DNA of 36,500 nt from an uncultured Candidatus Saccharibacteria bacterium (GTDB lineage: Bacteria > Patescibacteriota > Minisyncoccia > HO2-45-28). The stretch's first letter is position 1. The number at the start of each line of letters is the position of its first letter. Shown one piece after another: positions 4,435-35,305 of the stretch. The DNA lies in the NCBI GenBank assembly GCA_964412115.1, contig CAYPMM010000007.1, forward strand, positions 1 to 36,500, read 5' to 3'. Below the pieces are notes generated by a model. That model was given only the letters and a program-made list of their open reading frames with translations. It was not told where the DNA came from and did not search any database. The position numbers were made by a program, and so were the translations under genes.

Positions 4435-4794
4435 ATGGCTTTAGACCTAAATCATTTTAGAAAAAAACTTGATGAGGAGCGCATTCGGGTAGAAGGCGAA
4501 CTTAAGAGCATCGCCAAGATATCACCGGATAACCCAAAGGATTGGCAATCGGTCCCGCCAGACTCCGACGTACAGCCGGGGGAGGCAAGCGAGATGGCCG
4601 ACCGTTTTGAGGAAATGGGCAATCGGGCGGCGCGCGAAATTGAACTTGAAACCCGCCTGAACGAAATAAACGCCGCGATAGCCCGAATTGAAAAGGGAAC
4701 TTACGGCTATTGCTCCGCTGACCAAAAACCCATACCGGAGGCGCGTCTTGAAGCCAACCCCACCGCCGAAACCTGTATTGAGCACGCCAAATAA
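4435..4794 (+). CDS. DksA/TraR-family-like protein with degenerate zinc finger
   Basis: 119 aa with a coiled-coil N-terminal part and a C-terminal GTYGYC...ETC segment carrying only two Cys. Confidence 0.6.
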   Translation: MALDLNHFRKKLDEERIRVEGELKSIAKISPDNPKDWQSVPPDSDVQPGEASEMADRFEEMGNRAAREIELETRLNEINAAIARIEKGTYGYCSADQKPIPEARLEANPTAETCIEHAK

Positions 4795-4808: not shown

Positions 4809-4862
4809 TTTGCGAGTCTGACTCGCAAACTACCCGAATTACCCAAACTAAGTTTGGGTAAT
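4809..4862. repeat. Two adjacent perfect odd palindromes (21 bp at 4809-4829, 25 bp at 4838-4862)
   Basis: TTTGCGAGTC-T-GACTCGCAAA and ATTACCCAAACT-A-AGTTTGGGTAAT. Neither is followed by a T-tract. Confidence 0.8.
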
Positions 4863-5280: not shown

Positions 5281-5330
5281 AACCCCGTTTAAATTTTGCC
5301 GTAGCAAAATTTGTGCGGGGTTTTCCTTTT
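5281..5330 (+). other. Long two-tier hairpin upstream of comM
   Basis: AACCCCG...CGGGGTT encloses AAATTTTGC-CGTA-GCAAAATTT and is followed by a T-rich stretch. Confidence 0.5.
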
Positions 5331-5359: not shown

Positions 5360-6877
5360 ATGTCCGTCAAACTCCATGCCGCGGAAGTTTTGGGCCTTTC
5401 GGGAGAAATAATTGACGTTGAAGTTGATTATTCAAAGGGGCTCCGCTCTTTTACCATTGTGGGGCTCGCCGACAAGGCGGTGGATGAAGCCAAAGAAAGA
5501 ATATCTTACGCCATAAAAAATATCGGGCTCAAGCCCCCGCATAAACAAAATCAAAAAGTCATAGTTTCCTTGGCGCCGGCCGATCTTAAAAAAGAAGGGT
5601 CGGCTTTTGATTTAGCAATCGCTTTGGGCTATATAATGGCGTCCAAACAGGCCGAATTTGATACTAAAGACAAGATATTTTTGGGAGAGCTTGCTTTAGA
5701 CGGAGCGCTGCGGCCAATCAAAGGGGTTTTGGCCCTTGCCAGAAAAGCGGTGTCTGCCGGATTTAAAGAAATTTACGTGCCTAAAGGAAACGGAAAAGAA
5801 GCGGCGATAATAGGAAATATTTCCGTACGCGAAGTTGAGGGACTGGAGCAAATACTCGGCCATCTTAGAAACGAATCTGTAATTGAGGCCCTGCCTAAAA
5901 CCGAAATGAACTGCGAGACGAGTACGGCGGACTACGACCTATCGGACATCCGCGGACAGGAAAACGCCAAAAGAGCTTTGATGATCGCGGCCTCCGGCGG
6001 CCACAACATTTTAATGTCCGGACCTCCGGGGACGGGAAAGACACTGCTTGCCAAAGCATTGCCGTCAATCTTGCCTCCGCTTTCATACGAAGAAGCGCTT
6101 GAAGTAACCACTATCCACAGCGTTGCCGGAACAATAGACGGACCGTTTGCCGAAGAGCGTCCTTTTCGCTCGCCCCACCACACCTCTTCATATGTCGCCA
6201 TGGTCGGCGGGGGCGTCTGGCCAAGACCCGGGGAGATAACTCTGGCCCACCGCGGAGTGCTTTTTGCCGATGAGTTTCCGGAATTTGAACGCCGGGTAAT
6301 TGAAGCACTGAGACAGCCGCTTGAAGACGGAGTCATAACCGTGGCTCGCGCCAAAGGAACGGTGAGGTTTCCGGCCAAATTCATGCTAGTTGCGGCTCAA
6401 AACCCGTGCCCATGCGGAAATCTTGGTTCAAAAAATAAAATGTGCCTTTGCAATCCGGCGTCTCTTTTTCGCTATCAAAGGAAGGTTTCGGGACCGATCG
6501 CCGACCGAATTGACCTTTGGATGGAAGTTTCCAATATTGACCACGAAGAATTGTCTCAAAAAAGCTCCGCTCCGACATCAGCCGAAATACGGCACAAAGT
6601 CATTGACGCCAGAGACAGGCAAAGCGCGCGGTTTAAGGGCTTTGGCATAATTTCAAACAGCGAAATCGGGGCGCGCGACATTGAAAAACTCGCCCCGCTG
6701 TCGGCTGATGCCAGAAACATTCTTAATATTTCAGCCAAACAGATGGACTTGTCGCCGCGGGCGTATCATAGGGTGATAAAAATAAGCCGGACCATAGCCG
6801 ACTTGGAAAACGAAGAGCAAATAAAACAGGGACACATTCTGGAGGCCCTGCAGTACAGACCGAAAAATAATTTTTAA
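5360..6877 (+). CDS. comM: Mg-chelatase-like ATPase, YifB/ComM family
   Basis: 505 aa with a Lon-like N-domain, Walker A GPPGTGKT and the ComM-typical CPCG motif. Confidence 0.9.
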   Translation: MSVKLHAAEVLGLSGEIIDVEVDYSKGLRSFTIVGLADKAVDEAKERISYAIKNIGLKPPHKQNQKVIVSLAPADLKKEGSAFDLAIALGYIMASKQAEFDTKDKIFLGELALDGALRPIKGVLALARKAVSAGFKEIYVPKGNGKEAAIIGNISVREVEGLEQILGHLRNESVIEALPKTEMNCETSTADYDLSDIRGQENAKRALMIAASGGHNILMSGPPGTGKTLLAKALPSILPPLSYEEALEVTTIHSVAGTIDGPFAEERPFRSPHHTSSYVAMVGGGVWPRPGEITLAHRGVLFADEFPEFERRVIEALRQPLEDGVITVARAKGTVRFPAKFMLVAAQNPCPCGNLGSKNKMCLCNPASLFRYQRKVSGPIADRIDLWMEVSNIDHEELSQKSSAPTSAEIRHKVIDARDRQSARFKGFGIISNSEIGARDIEKLAPLSADARNILNISAKQMDLSPRAYHRVIKISRTIADLENEEQIKQGHILEALQYRPKNNF

Positions 6878-8539: not shown

Positions 8540-10465
8540 ATGCAGGAAAATAAATTGCTTTCGGGGTTGAACGAAGCGCAAAAGGAGGCCGTTTTGCACA
8601 AAGACGGACCTCTTTTGATTGTGGCGGGCGCCGGTTCGGGCAAAACCCGGGTTTTGACCCACCGCGTCGCCCATTTGATCGCGGGCGGAGTACAGCCGGA
8701 AAAAATCCTTGCGGTCACATTCACCAACAAAGCCGCGGGCGAAATGAAAGAAAGAATCGCAAAACTCCTTCAGGTCCCACTCTCCCAAATTTTGCCGAAG
8801 AAAAATTTGGGAGGACCATGGATCGGCACCTTCCATTCTCTCGGCGCCTGGATTTTGAGGAATGATGCAAAAAGCGCCGGACTTGGCAAAAACTTCTCAA
8901 TAGCCGACGAGGAAGACAGTCTGTCGCTTATAAAAGAATCAATCAAAGAAGCCGGAGCCGACCCGAAACAATTCCAGCCGTTCAGGATAAAGAAAGTTAT
9001 TTCAAGAAAGAAGTGCGAGCTTATTTGCGCCGAAGACTTTTCGTCCGAGGCCCGAGACCCGTTTTCACGAACGCTCGCTCTTATCTGGCGGATTTATGAG
9101 AACAAATTAAAATCATCCGACTTCGCCGACTTTGACGACTTATTGATTAAAACAGAAAACCTTTTTTCGTCCCACCCCGAAATCCTTTCAAAATATCAGG
9201 ACATGTGGCAATACATAAACGTGGACGAATTCCAGGACACCGACAGCGTCCAATACAAAATCGCGAGCGTCCTTGCTTCCAAACACTCAAACATCTGCGT
9301 TGTCGGCGACGTGGACCAGTCAATTTACAGCTTTCGCGGAGCCGATTTCAGAAACATTTTGAATTTTGAAATGGGTTGGCCCGGCGCCAAAGTCATAACT
9401 CTTGAAGAAAATTACCGCTCAACCCCCCAAATTTTAGACGCGGCTAATGCCGTAATCGCCAAAAATAAGCTGCGCAAGCCCAAAAACCTTTTCACTAAAG
9501 CAGACAGCGGAGAAAAACTGGCGGTGTATGCCGCCGAAAACGAAAACGATGAAGCCGATTTTATCGCCTCTGAGGCGGCCGGTCTTATCAAAAAGGGAGT
9601 GAGGCCCGAACAAATAGCGGTGCTTTTCCGCACCAACGCCCAGTCCAGAGTCCTTGAAGAAAAATTCCTGGCCCGCGCCCTGCCTTATTACGTAGTCGGC
9701 GTCAAATTTTACGCCAGAAAAGAAGTAAAAGACGTTTTGGCCTATCTTAAATCAAGTCTCAACCCGTCGGACCTCTTAAGCAAAAAAAGGGTAATAAACC
9801 TGCCCGCGCGCGGCATAGGCAAGGCTCTAATGGTCAAATATTTGGCCGGAGCCGGATTGAAGCCGGCCGAGCGCGAAAAAATAGCGTCTTTTGAAGGACT
9901 GCTCGGCCGGATAAAGTCGTATGCCGAAAAAATGCCGGCATCGCGCGCGGTTATGTCGGCGATTAAAGAAAGCAAATACTTTGAAATGTTTGACTCCGGA
10001 ACGGAAGAGGGGGCGATGCGTCTGGCCAATGTCATGGAACTGGCCAGTCTTTCGGTGAAATTCGACCATATTAAACCTCCGGGCGGTCTGGTAAAAATGC
10101 TTGAGGAAGCAAGCCTTATGTCGGATCAGGATTCCATAAGCGGAGCTAAAAAAGGAGTACCGCTTACGACGGTGCATGCCGCCAAAGGGCTTGAATTTGA
10201 CCGCGTTTTTATCGCCGGACTTGAGGAAGGGCTTTTCCCTCATACCGCCATAGGAGGGGGAGACGAAAAGTTAAGACTTGAGGAAGAAAGAAGGCTTTTT
10301 TATGTCGCGCTTACGCGCGGACGCAAGAAAGTATATCTGTCGCTCGCGTTTTTCCGCACCATTTTCGGAGAGCGCCAAGTAAATATGCCCTCAAGATTTT
10401 TGGACGACATACCGCCCGAACTTCTGGAAAAAGCGGATGACGAAAAGACGATAGAACTTGCTTAG
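8540..10465 (+). CDS. pcrA: UvrD/PcrA/Rep-family SF1 DNA helicase
   Basis: 641 aa with Walker A AGAGSGKT, DEFQDT and other SF1 helicase motifs. Confidence 0.93.
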   Translation: MQENKLLSGLNEAQKEAVLHKDGPLLIVAGAGSGKTRVLTHRVAHLIAGGVQPEKILAVTFTNKAAGEMKERIAKLLQVPLSQILPKKNLGGPWIGTFHSLGAWILRNDAKSAGLGKNFSIADEEDSLSLIKESIKEAGADPKQFQPFRIKKVISRKKCELICAEDFSSEARDPFSRTLALIWRIYENKLKSSDFADFDDLLIKTENLFSSHPEILSKYQDMWQYINVDEFQDTDSVQYKIASVLASKHSNICVVGDVDQSIYSFRGADFRNILNFEMGWPGAKVITLEENYRSTPQILDAANAVIAKNKLRKPKNLFTKADSGEKLAVYAAENENDEADFIASEAAGLIKKGVRPEQIAVLFRTNAQSRVLEEKFLARALPYYVVGVKFYARKEVKDVLAYLKSSLNPSDLLSKKRVINLPARGIGKALMVKYLAGAGLKPAEREKIASFEGLLGRIKSYAEKMPASRAVMSAIKESKYFEMFDSGTEEGAMRLANVMELASLSVKFDHIKPPGGLVKMLEEASLMSDQDSISGAKKGVPLTTVHAAKGLEFDRVFIAGLEEGLFPHTAIGGGDEKLRLEEERRLFYVALTRGRKKVYLSLAFFRTIFGERQVNMPSRFLDDIPPELLEKADDEKTIELA

Positions 10466-10473
10466 TTAAAACT

Positions 10474-11277
10474 ATGACCAAACTTGGCCAGAATTTTCTA
10501 ATATCCAAACGCATCGCCGAAAAAATGGCCGATTCGGCCGAAACCGGCCCAAAAGACGTTGTTTTGGAAATAGGTCCGGGCAGAGGCATTTTAACCGGAG
10601 AGTTATTAAAACGCGCCAAAAAGGTGGTCGCGGTTGAAAAAGATGCCGCGCTTTTTGATTTTTTAAAGCAAAAATTCGCCGAAGAAATCCAAAAAAAACG
10701 GCTGGTTTTGATAAAAGATGATATCCGCGACTTCCTCAAAAATCCTGTTAAACATCCGATGTTTAACAAAGTGGTCGCCAACATCCCTTATTACCTTACC
10801 GGCCAGCTCCTGCGGCTCCTCCTGTCGCCAGTGTCGGATACCAGGTATCCGACAATAAAAGGATTGATTATTCTGATGCTTCAAAAAGAGGTAGCCCAAA
10901 GAATGGTGTCGGATACCCGGTATCCGACAAAAAGAAAGATGAGTCTTTTGGCTATTTCGGTCTGGGTGTGCGCTCGGCCAAAAATTGCTTTTTTGGTCAA
11001 AAAAGGCAATTTTTGGCCTCAACCGAAGGTAGATTCGGCGGTTGTTGTGTTCAAAAGACGGGAAAGGGACTTTTTCAAGGAGCACAAAATAAGCCAAAAG
11101 GCATTTTTTGACACGGTCAAGGCCGGCTTCGCCCACCCGCGCAAGGTCCTCAAAAACAACCTCGCTTTATCAGATATCGGATGTCTGATAAAGTGCGGGG
11201 TTGAAGAAAAAGCGAGAGCGGAAGATTTGTCGCTTGAAAACTGGGCCTGCTTGGTAAAATCATTATCAAAACTATAG
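10474..11277 (+). CDS. rsmA: 16S rRNA (adenine1518/1519-N6) dimethyltransferase
   Basis: 267 aa with SAM motif LEIGPGRGILT, NIPYY, MLQKEVAQRM and PKVDSAVV. Confidence 0.9.
   Translation: MTKLGQNFLISKRIAEKMADSAETGPKDVVLEIGPGRGILTGELLKRAKKVVAVEKDAALFDFLKQKFAEEIQKKRLVLIKDDIRDFLKNPVKHPMFNKVVANIPYYLTGQLLRLLLSPVSDTRYPTIKGLIILMLQKEVAQRMVSDTRYPTKRKMSLLAISVWVCARPKIAFLVKKGNFWPQPKVDSAVVVFKRRERDFFKEHKISQKAFFDTVKAGFAHPRKVLKNNLALSDIGCLIKCGVEEKARAEDLSLENWACLVKSLSKL
10832..10854. repeat. 23-bp perfect palindrome, copy 1, in-frame inside rsmA
   Basis: TGTCGGATACC-A-GGTATCCGACA, which encodes VSDTRYPT. Confidence 0.95.
10907..10929. repeat. 23-bp perfect palindrome, copy 2, in-frame inside rsmA
   Basis: TGTCGGATACC-C-GGTATCCGACA, 75 bp (25 codons) after copy 1, again encoding VSDTRYPT. 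Confidence 0.95.
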
Positions 11278-11625
11278 ACTGGTTCCAATCATTATGACCG
11301 TGTATTGAGTCGGATATGTTTTAGGACCGACAGTGCAAACACCGCCGGGGTTAGCCAGTCCCAAGGCCCATTTACCAGGTCTGTTTGGAGGACCATATGG
11401 GTAAGTAACCGCTGAATAGGGATAAAAATATAGTCCCGGACGCGGAGGACTGAGGGTAAATGCTATACCCCCGGAGCAAATATGGTCAATTTTGATTATA
11501 CGTCCGCCAAAAGGGATAGCCGCCGCATAGGCCAATGCCGGACCGTCATTACCAAAAATAGAAAATGGCGCCAGAATGGCCACAACAACCGCAAAACCAA
11601 GCGCGCCCGTAAAGAATTTCCTCAT
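11272..11625 (-). CDS. Small secreted Pro/Gly/Tyr-rich hypothetical protein
   Basis: Start moved to MRKFF, which begins a signal peptide, with TATAAT 6 nt upstream. The track ORF extends to 11688. Its stop abuts the rsmA stop. Confidence 0.55.
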   Translation of the reverse strand: MRKFFTGALGFAVVVAILAPFSIFGNDGPALAYAAAIPFGGRIIKIDHICSGGIAFTLSPPRPGLYFYPYSAVTYPYGPPNRPGKWALGLANPGGVCTVGPKTYPTQYTVIMIGTSL

Positions 11626-11689
11626 GCTTATATTATAGCAGTGGTTATCCACACTTGAAAACAAAACTAAATTAAAGGTAAAAAGCAAA

Positions 11690-16158: not shown

Positions 16159-16731
16159 ATGCAGCCACTAACACCGGAACAATTATTCGCAAAGTACGAA
16201 AAAATACCAAAAGACTTGCAAGACGCCATATTAGACGCCGGAACTTCGGATATCATCGGCGCGATAACCAAAAAATACGGTCTGAACCTTGAGCAGGCCG
16301 GAAACCTTGCTGACGAGGTCGGGCTTTTGATGCTTGGCGAAACCAACCCGCGTGATTTTACGGCAAACTTAATCAAACGGCTCGAAACCGACCCCGAGAT
16401 GACAAAAAAAATAGCCCAGGAAATAAACGAGCAGATTTTTTCAAAAGTGCGCGAGTCGCTTAAAAAAATACACGGCGTAAGCGAAGAGGAAAAACAAGGG
16501 GCCGCGGGACCTCAGCCCGCAAAAACGGAAACCCCGGCACCGAAGCCGTCTTCGGGTTTAGGCGAGTCAAGACCCTCGCCATTTGAACAAAAATTGGAAG
16601 ACAAAGTTTTTCCGCCCAAGGCGGACCAGCCTTTGGCTGGTGTGCCCGCGCTTAAAAAAGAGGTGGAACAAGCGCAAAAAGAAAATCGTTATCCGTCTAG
16701 CGCGGACCCGTACCGCGAACCTCCAAAATAA
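16159..16731 (+). CDS. Hypothetical soluble protein with a Pro/Ala-rich C-terminal half
   Basis: 190 aa, in the operon, with no family recognised. Confidence 0.5.
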   Translation: MQPLTPEQLFAKYEKIPKDLQDAILDAGTSDIIGAITKKYGLNLEQAGNLADEVGLLMLGETNPRDFTANLIKRLETDPEMTKKIAQEINEQIFSKVRESLKKIHGVSEEEKQGAAGPQPAKTETPAPKPSSGLGESRPSPFEQKLEDKVFPPKADQPLAGVPALKKEVEQAQKENRYPSSADPYREPPK

Positions 16732-16733
16732 TT

Positions 16734-17138
16734 ATGCGCCAATTTTCAGTTCCGCAATTCATAGAAGTAGAAGACAAAATTTTCGGGCCGCTTACGCTCA
16801 AGCAGTTTATTTATCTGCTTGGAGGAGGGGCATCCGTATTTATAATTTATGTTTTCGGAGGGATGCTGGGCGTTATTTTTCTCGGCCTGCCGATTGCGGT
16901 TTTTGCGGCAGCGCTCGCTTTTTATAAAATAAACGGCCAGCCCTTTATAAACATAGCGGCAAGCGCCGTATCTCACTACAGCAAATCAAAACTTTACATT
17001 TGGAAAAGGGTTGAGACAAAAAAACAAGACATCCGTAAAATTCCGGCCCTTGAACAAAAACTGGTCCTGCCGAAAATCACCGAAAGCAAATTAAGAGACC
17101 TGTCCTGGTCTTTAGACGTAAAAGAAAAAATAAAATAA
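16734..17138 (+). CDS. PrgI-family (VirB3-like) membrane protein
   Basis: 134 aa. The N-terminus FSVPQFIEVEDKIFGPLTLKQFIYL followed by two TM helices is typical of PrgI/VirB3-like proteins. Confidence 0.65.
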   Translation: MRQFSVPQFIEVEDKIFGPLTLKQFIYLLGGGASVFIIYVFGGMLGVIFLGLPIAVFAAALAFYKINGQPFINIAASAVSHYSKSKLYIWKRVETKKQDIRKIPALEQKLVLPKITESKLRDLSWSLDVKEKIK

Positions 17139-17140
17139 GC

Positions 17141-17794
17141 ATGGCCAAAGCACAATCATCGCAAGAATTCGTTCCGATAAAAGAAATACGCGACGGGATA
17201 ATGATTACCGACGACGGAAATTTGCATATGGTTTTGATGGCCTCCTCCCTGAATTTCGCCCTTCGCTCCGGGGAAGAGCAGGAGGCAGTCACGGCCCAAT
17301 ACCAGAATTTTTTAAACTCGCTGGATTTTTCGGTCCAAATCATGATTCAGTCGCGCCGGCTTAATATTGACCCGTATCTTGAAACCTTGCGCCAGGCCGA
17401 AAAAGAGCAGACAAACGAGCTGATGAAAATTCAGACCCGCGAATACGTGGAATTCGTGCGCACTTTCGTCTCAACCACCAAAATCGTCACCAAAAGTTTT
17501 TACATTGTGGTTACATTTGTCCCGCCTTTTTTGGGGATAGGCAAAAAGGAGGGTTTCGGAGGATTTTTTAAAAAATTTTTCACCGGTGAAAAAAAAGAGG
17601 ACAAACAGATAATGGACGAAAAGTTTGAAGAATACCGGACACAGCTTTGGCAAAGGGCCGAAACGGTCTCGGGCGCCATCGCTTCAACCGGAGTCAGAAC
17701 CGCGCCTTTAAACACCGAGGAATTGGTCGAGCTTTTTTACGGGCTTTTCAATCCTGGGGAACTGGAACGCGGACACGCTCCGCAAGTTAGATAA
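17141..17794 (+). CDS. Hypothetical protein resembling the N-terminal non-ATPase region of VirB4/TrsE proteins
   Basis: 217 aa. The pattern FVPIKEIRDGIMITDDGNLHMVL...YQNFLNSL resembles VirB4 N-domains. The next gene starts 1 nt after its stop. Confidence 0.45.
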   Translation: MAKAQSSQEFVPIKEIRDGIMITDDGNLHMVLMASSLNFALRSGEEQEAVTAQYQNFLNSLDFSVQIMIQSRRLNIDPYLETLRQAEKEQTNELMKIQTREYVEFVRTFVSTTKIVTKSFYIVVTFVPPFLGIGKKEGFGGFFKKFFTGEKKEDKQIMDEKFEEYRTQLWQRAETVSGAIASTGVRTAPLNTEELVELFYGLFNPGELERGHAPQVR

Positions 17795-17795
17795 T

Positions 17796-19616
17796 ATGGC
17801 ATTAAAAGATTTATTCGGAAAAAAAGAGGAGAAGGCGGGCGATGAAATTATCGCCATAGAGCCATCGCAAATTTACGAGGCGGCGGTTTTGGAATTAAAA
17901 GACGTAATCGCGCCTTCAGCCCTTGAAGTAAATTCAAACTTCGTAAAAATCGGGGAAAAGACCGCCCGCACTCTTTTTGTTTTTTCATATCCGAGATTTC
18001 TGGCCATAAATTGGTTTTCACCAATCATAAATTTGGACAAGGTTTTTGATATATCGCTTTACGTCCACCCAATGGACACCGCCTCCGTTTTGAGACAACT
18101 GCAAAAAAAAGTGGCCGAGGTCCAGTCGCAGATACACATGCGCGAAGAAAAAGGGCTGGTCAGAGACCCGATGCTGGATGCAGCTCATCAAAATCTTGAG
18201 GAATTAAGAGATAAGCTCCAGCAGGCGCAGGAAAAATTATTTTCTTTTGGACTTTACATCACCATTTACGCCGACACTCTTGAAGAGCTGGACCGCGAGG
18301 AGTCGGAGATAAGGTCAATGCTTGAATCAAAACTGATTTACGCCAAACCGGCCTTGTTTCAGCAAAGCGACGGGCTGCTTACCGTGTTCCCTCTCGGATA
18401 TGACAAGATAGGCATAAACTCCAAGCTTAATTCTTCTCCAATTTCAAGCCTGTTTCCATTCGTATCGTTTGATTTAACCTCAAATAAAGGAATCCTTTAC
18501 GGAGTCAACCGGCACAACAACAGTCTGGTTCTTTTTGACCGCTTTAGTTTGGAAAATTATAACTCGGTAATTTTTGCCAAGTCCGGCGCCGGAAAAAGCT
18601 ACGCCACGAAATTGGAAGTGGTGCGTTCGCTTATGTTTGATACCGACGTTATAGTCATTGACCCCGAGCGCGAATACGAATACTTGGCCGAAGCGGTTGA
18701 CGGCCGGTATTTCAGCATTTCGCTTTCTTCCCCGCATCACATCAACCCGTTTGACCTGCCCAAACCCAGAGAAGATGAAGATCCGGCCGATGTTTTGCGT
18801 TCAAATATCATCAATCTGGTCGGGCTTTTCAGGATAATGCTCGGCGGGCTCACTCCCGAAGAAGACGCGGTGCTTGACCGGGCGATAACCGAAACCTACG
18901 CCTCGCGCGACATAACGCCCGATTCAGATTTTTCTTCCAAAATTCCGCCGATACTCTCCGACCTTGAATTGGTTTTGGCCAACATGGAGGGGGGCGAGGG
19001 ACTCGCGCAAAAAATGCGCAAATACACCCAGGGCACGTGGGCCGGATTCATAAACCAGCCGACCAATGTTGATATCAATAAAAAAATGGTCGTTTTTTCG
19101 GTAAGAGACATGGAAGACGAACTAAGGCCGGTCGCGATGTATTTGGTGGTCCACCACATTTGGAACGCGGTGCGCAAAACAATCAAAAAAAGAATTCTGG
19201 TCATTGACGAGGCCTGGTGGATTATGAAAGAAGAACAGGGCGCGTCATTTTTATTCAGCATAGCCAAGCGCGCGCGAAAATATTTCTTGGGGGTCGCGAC
19301 CATAACCCAGGATGTCGGCGATTTTCTGCGCTCGCCTTACGGCATACCAATAATTACCAACTCTTCAATTCAGATACTTTTGAAGCAGTCGCCGGCAACG
19401 ATTGACCTGGTGCAAAAAACCTTTAATCTCACCGACGAAGAAAAGTTTTTGATACTTGAATCCGACGTCGGCGAGGGACTGTTTTTCGCGGGGTTAAAAC
19501 ATGTCGCGATAAAAATAATAAGCTCGTATACCGAGGATCAGATAATAACTTCGGACCCGCATCAGCTGCTCGCGATTAAAAAAGCGAAGCAGGAAATTAA
19601 TCCCGAAAATAAATAA
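17796..19616 (+). CDS. virB4: VirB4/TrsE/PrgJ-type T4SS ATPase
   Basis: 606 aa with Walker A KSGAGKSY and Walker B RILVIDEAWW. Confidence 0.85.
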   Translation: MALKDLFGKKEEKAGDEIIAIEPSQIYEAAVLELKDVIAPSALEVNSNFVKIGEKTARTLFVFSYPRFLAINWFSPIINLDKVFDISLYVHPMDTASVLRQLQKKVAEVQSQIHMREEKGLVRDPMLDAAHQNLEELRDKLQQAQEKLFSFGLYITIYADTLEELDREESEIRSMLESKLIYAKPALFQQSDGLLTVFPLGYDKIGINSKLNSSPISSLFPFVSFDLTSNKGILYGVNRHNNSLVLFDRFSLENYNSVIFAKSGAGKSYATKLEVVRSLMFDTDVIVIDPEREYEYLAEAVDGRYFSISLSSPHHINPFDLPKPREDEDPADVLRSNIINLVGLFRIMLGGLTPEEDAVLDRAITETYASRDITPDSDFSSKIPPILSDLELVLANMEGGEGLAQKMRKYTQGTWAGFINQPTNVDINKKMVVFSVRDMEDELRPVAMYLVVHHIWNAVRKTIKKRILVIDEAWWIMKEEQGASFLFSIAKRARKYFLGVATITQDVGDFLRSPYGIPIITNSSIQILLKQSPATIDLVQKTFNLTDEEKFLILESDVGEGLFFAGLKHVAIKIISSYTEDQIITSDPHQLLAIKKAKQEINPENK

Positions 19617-19618
19617 AA

Positions 19619-19996
19619 ATGGCCGAACAAAATCAAATTGAAAACGAGCGCGCTTTAAATCTTTTGGAATCGCGGAAAAACGGCGGCTCCGCGGAAAAAA
19701 ACGCGCCCGCGGGCTCAAACGTGGGAAAGTCCGAATTCGGACTGATGGTTGGTTTTGCTTCGTTTTGCGATTTAATTAGCCAGATACCCGGAGTCGGCTT
19801 TATAATAGACGGTATGGCGTGGTTTACGATATTCGCGTGGACCCAGACCCGCGGACTGAAAAAACCTCAAATTTTTCATCTAAGCGGGGCGGGCGGATTC
19901 ATCCCTTTTTTGCCGGCCTATACCGGAATGGTGGTGTTTTTATATTTTTACAATGATAACCCCCAATTCAGGGCGTTTTTCGGAGGAGAAACATGA
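19619..19996 (+). CDS. Small membrane protein, hypothetical
   Basis: 125 aa with 2-3 hydrophobic segments, in the operon. Confidence 0.5.
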   Translation: MAEQNQIENERALNLLESRKNGGSAEKNAPAGSNVGKSEFGLMVGFASFCDLISQIPGVGFIIDGMAWFTIFAWTQTRGLKKPQIFHLSGAGGFIPFLPAYTGMVVFLYFYNDNPQFRAFFGGET

Positions 19997-33165: not shown

Positions 33166-33631
33166 AGAATTATTAAAAAAACCCGCAGCGTTGATATCAG
33201 AAAACAATATCGTAAAAGATATAGTTATTGATAACGATAATGCGAGTATAATACTTGACAGGCTCGGAGAAAAAAAAGAGGATTTCTCTGAATTTTTTAT
33301 GGTTTATCTGGACGAAGATGGTCGTGTCAAGGCGGTTATGGCGGAGAAAGACGTGAGTTCTCTTTTGATTATTGTTGAAAAACTGCTCAAAAATAAGAAG
33401 TTAGACACCGAAAAAATAAAAGATATGAAATTGACAGAGTCGTTTCCATTAGACAAAAGAATTTTTGTTAAACGCAGTGACGAATTATTAAAAGTATTAG
33501 AAGTTTTTAGAAATAAGGACATTTCTACAGATGTTGTTATTATTGTGGACGAGTCAGATGCATATGCGGGGAAAATTAGGAGAAAAAGTCTATTAAAAAA
33601 GATCGATTCTTTATTAAATCAAAACAAATAA
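33155..33631 (+). CDS. Hypothetical protein, CBS-pair-like
   Basis: 158 aa with two segments of CBS-like pattern (..FFMVYLDEDGRVKAVMAEKDV.. and ..DVVIIVDESDAYAGKIRRKSLL..). 11-nt overlap with the upstream gene. Confidence 0.4.
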   Translation: MIFKELLKKPAALISENNIVKDIVIDNDNASIILDRLGEKKEDFSEFFMVYLDEDGRVKAVMAEKDVSSLLIIVEKLLKNKKLDTEKIKDMKLTESFPLDKRIFVKRSDELLKVLEVFRNKDISTDVVIIVDESDAYAGKIRRKSLLKKIDSLLNQNK

Positions 33632-34069: not shown

Positions 34070-35269
34070 ATGGCGGATTTTTTAAGTGATAAATTAAACG
34101 AAAAAATATCGCGGCTTTCGGAGGAAATAATAACCAAAGGCGAGCTTCTAAGCCGGCTGAAATCGGGCAAAAAACTGCGGATAAAATACGGGGTTGATGT
34201 TACCTCGCCCTTTTTGCATCTGGGGCACGCGGTTAATTTGTGGCTTATGCGCGCTTTTCAGGAAGAGGGACACAAGGTTGTTTTTCTTGTGGGCGACTTT
34301 ACGACCAAGATAGGCGATCCGACGGGAAGGGACGAGGCGCGTAAAAAAATTTCGGACGCCGACATAAAAAAAGGAGCGAAAGAATTCATAAAACAGGTTT
34401 CTAAAATTCTTTTGACCGGCAAGAAGGTTTTTGAAATACGCAAAAACTCCGAGTGGTATTCAAAAATGAGCGCGAAAGAACTCACCGAACTTTTGTCTCT
34501 TTTCACCAACGCCCAGCTGATTAAGCGCGACATGTTTCAGGAAAGAATAAAAAAAGACATTGAAATTTACGAGCACGAGCTGATATATCCCATTTTGCAG
34601 GGCTACGATTCGGTAATGCTCAAATCCGACCTGACGGTCATCGGTTCGGACCAGCTTTTTAACGAGATGAGAGGCAGGGACTTGCAGGAAAAATTCGGGC
34701 AAGAGCGGCAGGTCATTATTACCACCAAAATCACCCCGGGGATACGCGGAGGAGAAAAACAGTCAAAAAGTTTGGGGAATTACATCGGCCTTTCCGACTT
34801 CGCCCGCGAAAAGTTCGGCAAAATCATGAGCATGCCCGATGGCCTGATAGTTAAATATTTTGAGGTTTATAGCGACGTCGCGCTTTCTCGGATAAAAGAA
34901 ATTGAGCGAGGAATTTCTAAAAAAACATTAAACCCGAAAGATGCCAAAATGGAATTGGCCGAAGCCATAGTTTTAAAATACCACGGCAAAAAAGAAGCCG
35001 ATGAAGCCAAAAGTTTTTTTGTGAGCACTTTCCAGAGAAAAGAATTGCCTGAAGGAATCGGAGTTTTTACCGCCGAAAAAGGAAGTGCCGTAAAAAACAT
35101 TCTTGTCGCGTCCAAAATGGCTCCGTCCAATTCGGAAGCGGTCCGCCTTATTAAAGCCGGAGCCGTTGAATTTGACGGAGAACGTATTGGAGATATTCAC
35201 GAAAAAATATTAAAAGACGGGGTCTTGCGCGCGGGAAAAAAACGCTTTGTGAAAATTAAAATAAAATAA
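34070..35269 (+). CDS. tyrS: Tyrosyl-tRNA synthetase
   Basis: 399 aa with HIGH-type HLGH, KMSKS-type KQSKS and a C-terminal S4-like domain. Confidence 0.93.
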   Translation: MADFLSDKLNEKISRLSEEIITKGELLSRLKSGKKLRIKYGVDVTSPFLHLGHAVNLWLMRAFQEEGHKVVFLVGDFTTKIGDPTGRDEARKKISDADIKKGAKEFIKQVSKILLTGKKVFEIRKNSEWYSKMSAKELTELLSLFTNAQLIKRDMFQERIKKDIEIYEHELIYPILQGYDSVMLKSDLTVIGSDQLFNEMRGRDLQEKFGQERQVIITTKITPGIRGGEKQSKSLGNYIGLSDFAREKFGKIMSMPDGLIVKYFEVYSDVALSRIKEIERGISKKTLNPKDAKMELAEAIVLKYHGKKEADEAKSFFVSTFQRKELPEGIGVFTAEKGSAVKNILVASKMAPSNSEAVRLIKAGAVEFDGERIGDIHEKILKDGVLRAGKKRFVKIKIK

Positions 35270-35305
35270 CCAAAACCCGCCGAAGAGGCGGGTTTTGGTT
35301 ATTTT
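35263..35305. terminator. Bidirectional terminator hairpin
   Basis: 19-bp perfect stem AAAATAACCAAAACCCGCC / GGCGGGTTTTGGTTATTTT with a GAAGA loop, overlapping the tyrS stop. Confidence 0.85.

Follow-up and report, generated by a model that had tools for sequence, protein, structure and literature searches.

Palindromic 23-nt units in the RsmA loops of a Patescibacteria genome: probable REP-like repeats with relatives at a Y1 transposase-like gene

The stretch of contig CAYPMM010000007.1 analysed here (36.5 kb, the extent of its organism's DNA covered in this work; below, the window) carries in its rsmA (ksgA) gene two 23-nt perfect palindromes, designated sites B and C. We consider it moderately probable that they are intragenic units of a Patescibacteria system similar to the repetitive extragenic palindromes (REPs) and their REP-associated tyrosine transposases (RAYTs), homogenised at the DNA level and kept in permissive loops of the RsmA protein. 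The original prediction, made from the letters of the window, had noted that the two palindromes differ only at the central base, that both are translated as VSDTRYPT on either side of the segment MLQKEVAQRM, and that such symmetry is improbable by chance. These points are confirmed by our analysis: the pattern TGTCGGATACCNGGTATCCGACA is found in the window with central A at site B and central C at site C, and nowhere else even when 3 mismatches are allowed, while none of 100 dinucleotide-preserving shuffles of the window matches it. The two copies are 75 nt (25 codons) apart in one reading frame, with 52 nt between the units. Since L018, obtained from a separate sample and with another assembler, retains both palindromes unchanged (99.73% identity to the window over 2972 nt; L and P numbers are our handles for further DNA sequences and proteins), and the palindromes are identical in independent assemblies, an assembly artefact was rejected.

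The host gene encodes the full-length 16S rRNA (adenine1518/1519-N6) dimethyltransferase RsmA/KsgA. Its product matches Pfam PF00398 over residues 2-265 (E-value 2.1e-46, 158.6 bits against a cutoff of 24), can be aligned over its whole length with solved KsgA structures (Bacillus subtilis KsgA, 6ifs: 5e-36), and contains both the S-adenosylmethionine (SAM) motif EIGPGRG and the catalytic motif NIPYY. The named proteins among its nearest database relatives are from Patescibacteria, e.g. Niyogibacteria; the closest ones are unnamed metagenomic proteins. A scan of the window for perfect palindromes (arms of at least 9 nt, loops of at most 8 nt) returned 10, of which 3 are inside the 0.8-kb rsmA. 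Altogether rsmA has three perfect 23-nt sites (A, B and C) and two imperfect ones (E and D); the original prediction, correct about its two perfect copies, had thus seen two of five sites and overlooked the third perfect palindrome as well as both imperfect ones. All coordinates are collected in Table 1.

Table 1. Host gene, palindromic sites and Y1 transposase-like loci in the window and in relatives
Feature	Source	Position	Strand	Description
rsmA/ksgA host gene	window	10474-11277	+	267-aa open reading frame (ORF), intact; Pfam PF00398 and KsgA structure match
Site A	window	10746-10768	+	TGTTAAACATC-C-GATGTTTAACA; perfect 23-nt palindrome, 11-nt arms, read (P)VKHPMFN(K)
Site B	window	10832-10854	+	TGTCGGATACC-A-GGTATCCGACA; perfect 23-nt palindrome, read VSDTRYPT
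Site C	window	10907-10929	+	TGTCGGATACC-C-GGTATCCGACA; perfect 23-nt palindrome, read VSDTRYPT, in KsgA loop12
Site E	window	10976-11018	+	43-nt near-perfect palindrome, 19-nt arms, 1 mismatch, 5-nt loop
Site D	window	11165-11193	+	CTTTATCAGATATC-G-GATGTCTGATAAAG; imperfect palindrome, 14-nt arms, 1 mismatch, read ALSDIGCLIK
rsmA	L006	sites A and C		GCCAAGAGCT-T-AGCTCTTGGC at both
rsmA	L002, L008	sites A and C		inverted doublets of GGTCAGAAC-(CGA/TCG)-GTTCTGACC; another palindrome at B
rsmA	L005	sites A and C		doublets of CCGAAC-(TCG/CGA)-GTTCGG; extra copy at contig end
rsmA	L014	sites A, C and D		TGTCAAACATCGAATGTTTGACA at A, TGGTAAGAGCCGGGCTCTTGCCA at C, TGTCAAACATTCAATGTTGGACA at D
rsmA	L015			no palindrome at A-C; 29-nt perfect palindrome in C-terminal tail
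Y1 gene	L006	4165-4833	-	222-aa protein, ~5 kb upstream of rsmA; Pfam PF01797 (Y1_Tnp) 1.7e-11
Y1 locus with three units	L006	4141-4888		TGTCAAACA-N5-TGTTTGACA
Y1 locus (metagenome-assembled genome of Niyogibacteria)	L016	9945-10686		TGTCAAAAGTC-S-GACTTTTGACA, three copies
Y1 locus	L017	9958-10664		TGTCGAACAT-CGA-ATGTTCGACA, three copies

Alignment of the window protein with its 30 closest RsmA proteins reveals the hypervariability of sites A, B and C, which concerns length as well as sequence. VSDTRYPT recurs only in P0001, from a 99%-identical strain, which identifies the two blocks as lineage-specific; the same residues written with non-palindromic codons in distant relatives, which would make the DNA symmetry incidental, were looked for among these 30 and not seen. 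We also compared the rsmA DNA of the window with that of seven further genes. Each of these genomes has palindromes of its own, usually as a matched pair at two of the three loop sites A-C. Within one genome, units at different sites are identical at 21-22 of 23 nt, whereas the window units and those at the same site in other genomes agree at 8-11 of 23 nt, which is about the random level, in genes that as a whole are 66-78% identical. This contrast points to complete turnover of the units between relatives and to their matching inside each genome. The peptides encoded at A-C are unrelated between genomes (VSDTRYPT, AKSLALG, GQNSVLT, VRIRTEFG), each of them palindrome-encoded, and one DNA unit can be read in different frames at different sites (e.g. 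VKHRMFD and SNTGCLT); as these peptides share nothing between genomes, a conserved peptide role is disfavoured. The doublets of L002, L005 and L008 have spacers of 4-9 nt and arms of 18-24 nt, in contrast to the single, more widely spaced units of the window. The 33.7-kb contig L005 ends within a copy of its own rsmA-type palindrome (L005:1-27, CCGAGTTCGGATCCGAACTCGG), which suggests that these repeats break assemblies and that further copies may be present elsewhere in that genome.

In related genomes the home of this family is shown, at the level of sequence, to be a conserved gene of the Y1/HUH type with three copies of the unit. In L006 these are located directly 3' of the gene, in frame within it, and just 5' of it, and the same layout of TGTC...GACA units recurs in identical positions in L006, L016 and L017, each genome having its own variant. 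The gene encodes ~220 aa, with the internal unit at codons ~56-63 and the 3' unit overlapping the stop codon. The Y1 proteins possess an HUH motif, MPNHFHL, as well as the motif SAYIHLNP, and their similarity to solved TnpA structures (ISDra2 TnpA) is marginal (E = 0.18). The internal hairpin is recognizable at the protein level as V-[KQE]-[HS]-x-[MVT]-[FL]-D in 111 of 120 Y1 homologues, in which residues are paired as the stem imposes (K-F, Q-L, E-F, H-M or H-V): compatible pairs number 96 and 71 of 111, compared with maxima of 90 and 66 in 1000 partner shuffles. The family is large, 50-65% identical across many lineages of the candidate phyla radiation (CPR), each sequence cluster being found mostly on 1-2 contigs, as would be expected of a domesticated single-copy gene rather than of an active, multi-copy insertion sequence (IS). 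The genomic context of the gene is different in each of L006, L016 and L017.

Several units in rsmA are of the type associated with this gene. Site A of the window is of the canonical Y1-associated type, and its sole difference from the transposase-associated unit of L006, TGTCAAACATCCGATGTTTGACA, is a compensatory pair (C4>T and G20>A); sites A and D of L014 are of the same canonical type. Site D of L006 is a perfect palindrome, TGTCAAACACC-G-GGTGTTTGACA, of the type found at the Y1 gene of that genome. We infer that site D of the window is an old, decaying copy of the canonical type. The B/C unit shares with the Y1 units the architecture TGTC-N6-CNG-N6-GACA, with different inner triplets. 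More broadly, nearly all units are 23 nt long and conform to TG-N19-CA, and as DNA hairpins the 23-nt units of the window have a 10-bp stem with predicted energies from -6.9 kcal/mol (site A, z = -6.4) to -9.0 kcal/mol (site B), z ranging from -4.8 to -6.4. A census of 23-mers with ends TG...CA and at most 1 mismatch in the 10-bp stem, carried out on ~94 kb of rsmA loci from seven genomes, found 18 units in 7 non-redundant rsmA genes and 3 units in the remaining ~88 kb, all of them at the Y1 gene of L006; shuffled sequences yielded 0.01-0.04 units per locus. No census units are present in uvrD, comM and other neighbours of rsmA, and the three that the window contains are all in rsmA.

The units also show signs of change at the DNA level. 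Window site D has a core, TTATCAGATATCGGATGTCTGATAA, that exactly matches the reverse complement of its L002 counterpart, TTATCAGACATCCGATATCTGATAA, which indicates that this imperfect unit was inverted in place. Within L002, reverse-complementing the site A doublet gives that of site C, both loop triplets being flipped. The rsmA genes L002:75-926 and L013:75-875 (proteins P0006 and P0007) differ at site C alone, in a patch of ~100 nt where the doublet is replaced by other sequence and synonymous differences cluster on the flanks, and are 100% identical elsewhere; judged by this pattern, the patch is a short recombination tract.

Site D is the one column in which a test of codon potential proved informative. 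This test asked for any codon choice that makes a 7-residue stretch palindromic (121 RsmA proteins, background of 1.4% per position); palindrome-compatible peptides were found at site D in 26 of the 121 homologues, itself a noisy measure. As general evidence the test was dropped on account of its high background and false peaks at conserved motifs. Site E is of another kind. It encodes a conserved segment, RPKIAFLVKKGNFWP (PKIAF...GNFWP), without any change of length, and forms a DNA hairpin of -17.6 kcal/mol; in L005 its palindrome is perfect, with 18-nt arms. Comparison of the window with L002, L005, L006, L008, L014 and L015 revealed covariation in 5 of the 7 genomes, where a synonymous third base of a Pro codon changes together with the opposite W/R codon (CCA-TGG, CCG-CGG). 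The stem thus appears to shape a non-synonymous difference.

We used an AlphaFold model of the window RsmA, built from a 31-sequence alignment (mean predicted local distance difference test score, pLDDT, 87), and alignment with B. subtilis KsgA to place the sites on the protein. Sites A, B and C are in coil of lower confidence, with pLDDT of 67-78 in 10-residue blocks at A and B: site A spans residues 91-99 (~72-74), site B lies between helix 110-116 and strand 132-137 (blocks of 78 and 67), and site C has blocks of 69-72, with values below 50 for residues 149-152. Sites D and E belong to ordered parts of the model. Site C aligns with A163-K169 of B. subtilis KsgA, i.e. with loop12, which has been described as a specificity determinant of variable length; K169 and the nearby R161 contact the stem of h45, and K169 also contacts h27 (bioRxiv 10.1101/2021.09.15.460497). 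Site D follows the RRK motif of loop14, as defined in the same study. On this model the units occupy variable yet functionally relevant RsmA loops. The original prediction had put both VSDTRYPT-containing stretches at 5-6 residues longer than in Escherichia coli KsgA; relative to the B. subtilis protein this applies to site B (6 residues longer), but site C is longer by only 3. Compared with related RsmA proteins, too, the units add residues.

A scan of metagenomes for the exact 23-mer detected one locus, L012, which two assemblies of Hainich groundwater yielded once more, as L020 and L021; L015, which is syntenic with the window, comes from the same groundwater study. In L012, TGTCGGATACC-G-GGTATCCGACA is positioned after the stop codon of a gene for a 197-aa protein, from which a 13-nt spacer separates it, and is itself followed by TTTTTTATTTT; the unit faces the 3' end of a convergent msrB-like gene, and it is preceded by an A-rich run and followed by a run of T. 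An intergenic spot next to the 3' ends of convergent genes is a typical REP position (PMC3733652). The spacer holds a partial copy of 11 nt, ATGTCGGATAC, immediately 5' of the complete 23-mer (L012:1099-1132; L020 and L021 have it too), which seems to have been left behind by slippage or by a duplication of part of the unit. We rejected the idea that L012 belongs to the window organism: its orthologue L019, from the sample of the window-like strain L018, carries a different hairpin, and the link is at clade level only. In GTDB representative genomes the 21-mer core gave a single match, in Amycolatopsis, which was discarded: unlike the L012 match, which spans the full 23-mer, it stops at 21 nt, the genome is GC-rich, and ~0.5 chance matches are expected in 596 Gb. 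Neither the window 23-mer nor the canonical TGTCAAACAYCNGRTGTTTGACA was found in viral contigs.

Taken as REP-like units, the B and C palindromes would represent one genome's own variant within a family of 23-nt stem-loop repeats that is found in a groundwater clade of Patescibacteria. Copying, exchange or homogenisation would take place on the DNA, with the units in the form of single-strand hairpins, and would most likely be the work of a Y1 enzyme, or else of hairpin-templated repair and gene conversion; the window genome would possess a Y1 gene of its own with the B/C variant. Copies would persist in rsmA because the variable coil loops that receive them can accommodate 6-9 additional codons. 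B and C, being perfect and identical, would be the youngest copies, A a canonical variant, and D an old one in decay. The units are transcribed and translated (as VSDTRYPT twice); should they influence the expression of rsmA, or the recognition of rRNA by way of loop12, that influence would be incidental to the repeats or a secondary use of them.

There are clear similarities to the REP/REPIN-RAYT systems. REPs are short stem-loop repeats of 20-40 nt, compared with 23 nt and stems of 10-11 bp here, and in both cases the sequence is genome-specific; in L006, L016 and L017 the repeats flank a conserved, apparently single-copy Y1/HUH gene; inverted doublets in L002, L005 and L008 fold into a longer hairpin, as in REPINs; and the copy between convergent genes in L012 is located beside their 3' ends. 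Intragenic REPs have been documented, including two insertions in one ORF (PMC3733652). There are also differences, and strictly our units belong neither to the classified REP superfamilies nor to the Rickettsia palindromic elements (RPEs). Classified REPs have a one-sided tag, GTAG, or CGTC in the second superfamily (PMC3733652), and are present in tens to hundreds of mostly extragenic copies, while our units are concentrated in one gene; the Y1 protein is longer than a RAYT (~220 aa) and scores below the model threshold, and for its third, in-frame internal copy, conserved throughout the family, we found no description.

The RPEs were the analogy proposed in the original prediction, which regarded an in-frame palindromic insertion as one possibility. 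The lineage-specific blocks, the other palindromes in relatives, the flanking of Y1 genes and the intergenic 23-mer favour an element of this general sort, but one that is nearer to REP/RAYT than to RPE. RPEs too are palindromic repeats inserted in frame into genes for functional proteins of a reduced genome, translated as extra loop residues, and occur as single units or dimers, sometimes two per ORF. However, they are unrelated in sequence, tag and taxon (RPE-1 has 100-150 bp, RPE-4 and RPE-6 are CGTC-tagged), and they are scattered over many genes without an associated transposase gene, in contrast to rsmA and the Y1 gene here. With the IS200/IS605 elements, the Y1 loci of the relatives share an HUH gene bracketed by similar hairpins near both ends, the absence of target-site duplications around the units, and the varied contexts of the gene. 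They differ in the 50-65% identity across CPR with few contigs per cluster, and in hairpins that are also found detached from the gene. The copy in L012, L020 and L021 resembles a Rho-independent terminator, being closely 3' of a stop codon and followed by a T-run, whereas the window copies are inside an ORF, with A-rich sequence after them on the coding strand (ATAAAAGG and AAAAGAAAG); a terminator was therefore rejected for the latter, and a weak minus-strand terminator match was obtained at copy C only. A CRISPR-like repeat (two copies only, inside an ORF) and a DNA uptake sequence (far too rare) were also dismissed.

A number of observations weigh against the REP-like interpretation. No Y1 gene was found in the window, either by Pfam searches of the upstream ORFs or by tblastn with three Y1 proteins, the best matches of the latter being 38 aa at 33260-33373 (weak, E = 0.022) and the palindrome of site A, read from the other strand (E = 0.59). 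The B/C variant was not seen beside any Y1 gene, and the internal peptide predicted for it, VGYxVSD, is absent from all of the 120 best Y1 homologues. The sole NCBIfam match of the Y1 proteins is indeed to the REP-associated tyrosine transposase (NF047646), at 36-40 bits against a cutoff of 80. The ends of the units, TGTC...GACA or TGGT...ACCA, are symmetric and within the stem, in place of a one-sided GTAG or CGTC tag. A 23-nt unit is unable to insert in frame on its own. The L012 match, with ~22 specified bases, is not far above chance in ~10^12 bases, and the orthologous spacer in L019, with the same flanks, has a different hairpin. Three units in 36.5 kb, all in one gene, is a very low copy number for a REP family. 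Finally, random insertion explains neither the concentration of units in rsmA, with none in the neighbouring uvrD and comM, nor the matched pair around the catalytic core in many genomes. These two features leave over some targeting or selection for which copying alone does not account.

Such selection could act on RNA, which was another suggestion of the original prediction. According to this alternative, the units would be cis-acting structures in the rsmA mRNA, either 10-bp hairpins or a ~23-bp duplex, that control translation or decay through a cut of the RNase III type or through autoregulation by RsmA itself, whose substrate h45 is a 10-bp hairpin. The products of ksgA and ermC have been reported to regulate their own translation. 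The predicted fold of RNA 10730-10945 (216 nt; -71.9 kcal/mol, z = -6.1) has a local hairpin at site A and pairs B with C in a ~23-bp duplex. The recurrence of a matched pair or of doublets (arms of 22-24 nt) in several rsmA genes, despite full sequence turnover, is exactly what a structural requirement would yield, and the strong enrichment of units in rsmA over neighbouring genes as well as the paired synonymous and non-synonymous changes that keep site E paired in 5 of 7 genomes agree with it. The predicted B-C pairing makes that suggestion physically plausible, but it leaves the palindromy, the copies outside rsmA and the in-place inversions unexplained: long-range pairing does not need each unit to be self-complementary, and units are also found at the Y1 gene and in an intergenic spacer. 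Replacement by recombination patches is equally at odds with it, and so are close relatives that lack the pair (in P0007 the doublet at site C is gone, and L015 is without palindromes at A-C). Whereas h45 has a GGAA loop, those of the units are CAG, CCG, CGA, UCG and UUA, and Rfam, searched with the whole window at gathering thresholds, gave no match. Stem mismatches on the sense strand (n = 14: 3 T-G, 5 C-A, 6 others) exhibit no G-U bias, which speaks against pairing in RNA; as a test of RNA-level selection we set this count aside as not decisive, given 14 mismatches only. On balance we regard selected mRNA structure as unlikely, though still to be reckoned with.

The perfect symmetry, the fixed length of 23 bp and the conserved TGT...ACA ends could instead indicate double-stranded operators for a dimeric protein, the third suggestion of the original prediction. 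This protein would co-evolve with its sites in each genome, could be the Y1 protein, and would regulate its own gene and rsmA. Identical copies per genome with a genome-specific sequence would be expected of such a pair, and the copy in the 5' flank of the Y1 gene is where an autoregulatory operator would lie. However, different unit types coexist in one gene (A versus B/C in the window; A/C versus D in L006), the units are deep in the coding sequence and away from promoters, a promoter scan shows nothing associated with them, and no candidate regulator was identified. The inverted doublets, and the mismatch that stems of the GGTNAGAAC family conserve at position 5, agree better with recognition of a hairpin than of duplex DNA. 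We consider operators very unlikely.

The two identical 23-bp units, 52 nt apart around conserved core residues, and the similar pairs around the core in other genomes, might also be viewed as recombination substrates. Each unit is its own reverse complement, and exchange between B and C would delete (75 nt, in frame) or invert a segment that encodes a strand of the catalytic core and the MLQKEV motif, so as to create a switch or a loss-prone rsmA allele. Inversion of a unit in place and replacement of a patch are both observed, and related genomes encode a Y1 single-stranded DNA nuclease-ligase. Yet no deleted or inverted allele was seen: L018 has the arrangement of the window, all retrieved rsmA genes are intact ORFs, and the difference between P0006 and P0007 is a replacement patch rather than a unit-to-unit deletion. 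This explanation seems to us extremely unlikely. To the idea that the DNA symmetry is incidental, arising by chance or from a selected peptide motif, we give next to no credence: at site E, which encodes conserved residues, the symmetry stems partly from K-I and N-F codons in an A+T-leaning genome, and conserved motifs can look palindrome-compatible at the background rate given above, but for sites A-C the shuffles, the alignment, the unrelated palindrome-encoded peptides and the reading of one unit in different frames effectively refute it.

Other features of the window deserve a brief mention. The spacer between a gene for a DksA/TraR-type zinc finger protein (4435-4794) and a comM-like gene (5360-6877) contains three unrelated perfect palindromes (4809-4829, 4838-4862 and 5291-5312); in L006 the Y1 gene and different upstream genes are found at this spacer position, which marks it as a synteny breakpoint. 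The uvrD/pcrA-like gene includes a perfect palindrome with 12-nt arms, CTCCCAAATTTT-N8-AAAATTTGGGAG (8782-8813), which is not of the 23-nt TG...CA format and which falls in a loop region that is hypervariable among four relatives, without a clear gain of length. A 43-nt perfect palindrome with 19-nt arms, AAAATAACCAAAACCCGCC-GAAGA-GGCGGGTTTTGGTTATTTT (35263-35305), straddles the stop codon of ORF 34070-35269 and looks like a bidirectional terminator. On the minus strand, a 138-aa ORF without a Pfam match (11272-11688) overlaps the stop codon of rsmA; a 115-aa gene is called at its position in L002 and L013. Further downstream (~16700-19650), ORFs 16734-17138, 17141-17794 and 17796-19616 are close in length and order to the PrgI, TraC-like and P-loop TraG/VirB4-like genes of L005 and L015, so that a conserved cluster for type IV secretion, or one resembling a conjugation system, may lie downstream of rsmA.

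The general phenomenon, intragenic REPs and even two per ORF, is already known; the novelty lies in the host phylum, in the format of 23 nt with TG...CA ends, in an in-frame copy conserved inside the Y1 gene and in the striking concentration in rsmA. Palindromic repeats linked to Y1 genes are well studied in Proteobacteria, and in the literature that we searched there is no report of a RAYT or REP for Patescibacteria and no prior description of these units. In these compact genomes the repeats seem to reside within genes. A single type of 23-nt unit is read as protein both in a transposase-like gene and in a conserved enzyme of ribosome biogenesis, where it occupies loops that decide which rRNA the enzyme recognizes, with full turnover between close relatives and matching within a genome. 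The rsmA genes therefore offer a natural system for studying the homogenisation of hairpin repeats and the tolerance of a core enzyme to insertions. In practical terms, such units create spurious "insertions" in alignments of orthologues and break assemblies. Their concentration in rsmA poses a concrete, testable question. One answer, which we think quite unlikely, is that the units are more than passengers and that a domesticated Y1 enzyme and rsmA work as a functional pair. Y1-dependent exchange, inversion or excision of 23-nt hairpin cassettes would then remodel or switch either the expression of KsgA or the loops with which it recognizes rRNA. Such a pair would account for the presence of units almost only in the Y1 gene and rsmA in the DNA available, for the matched copies around the catalytic core, and for the occupancy of site D across distant relatives. 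If true, the pair would act on loop12 and on the region next to loop14, and would tune a checkpoint of ribosome biogenesis in these ultra-small bacteria.

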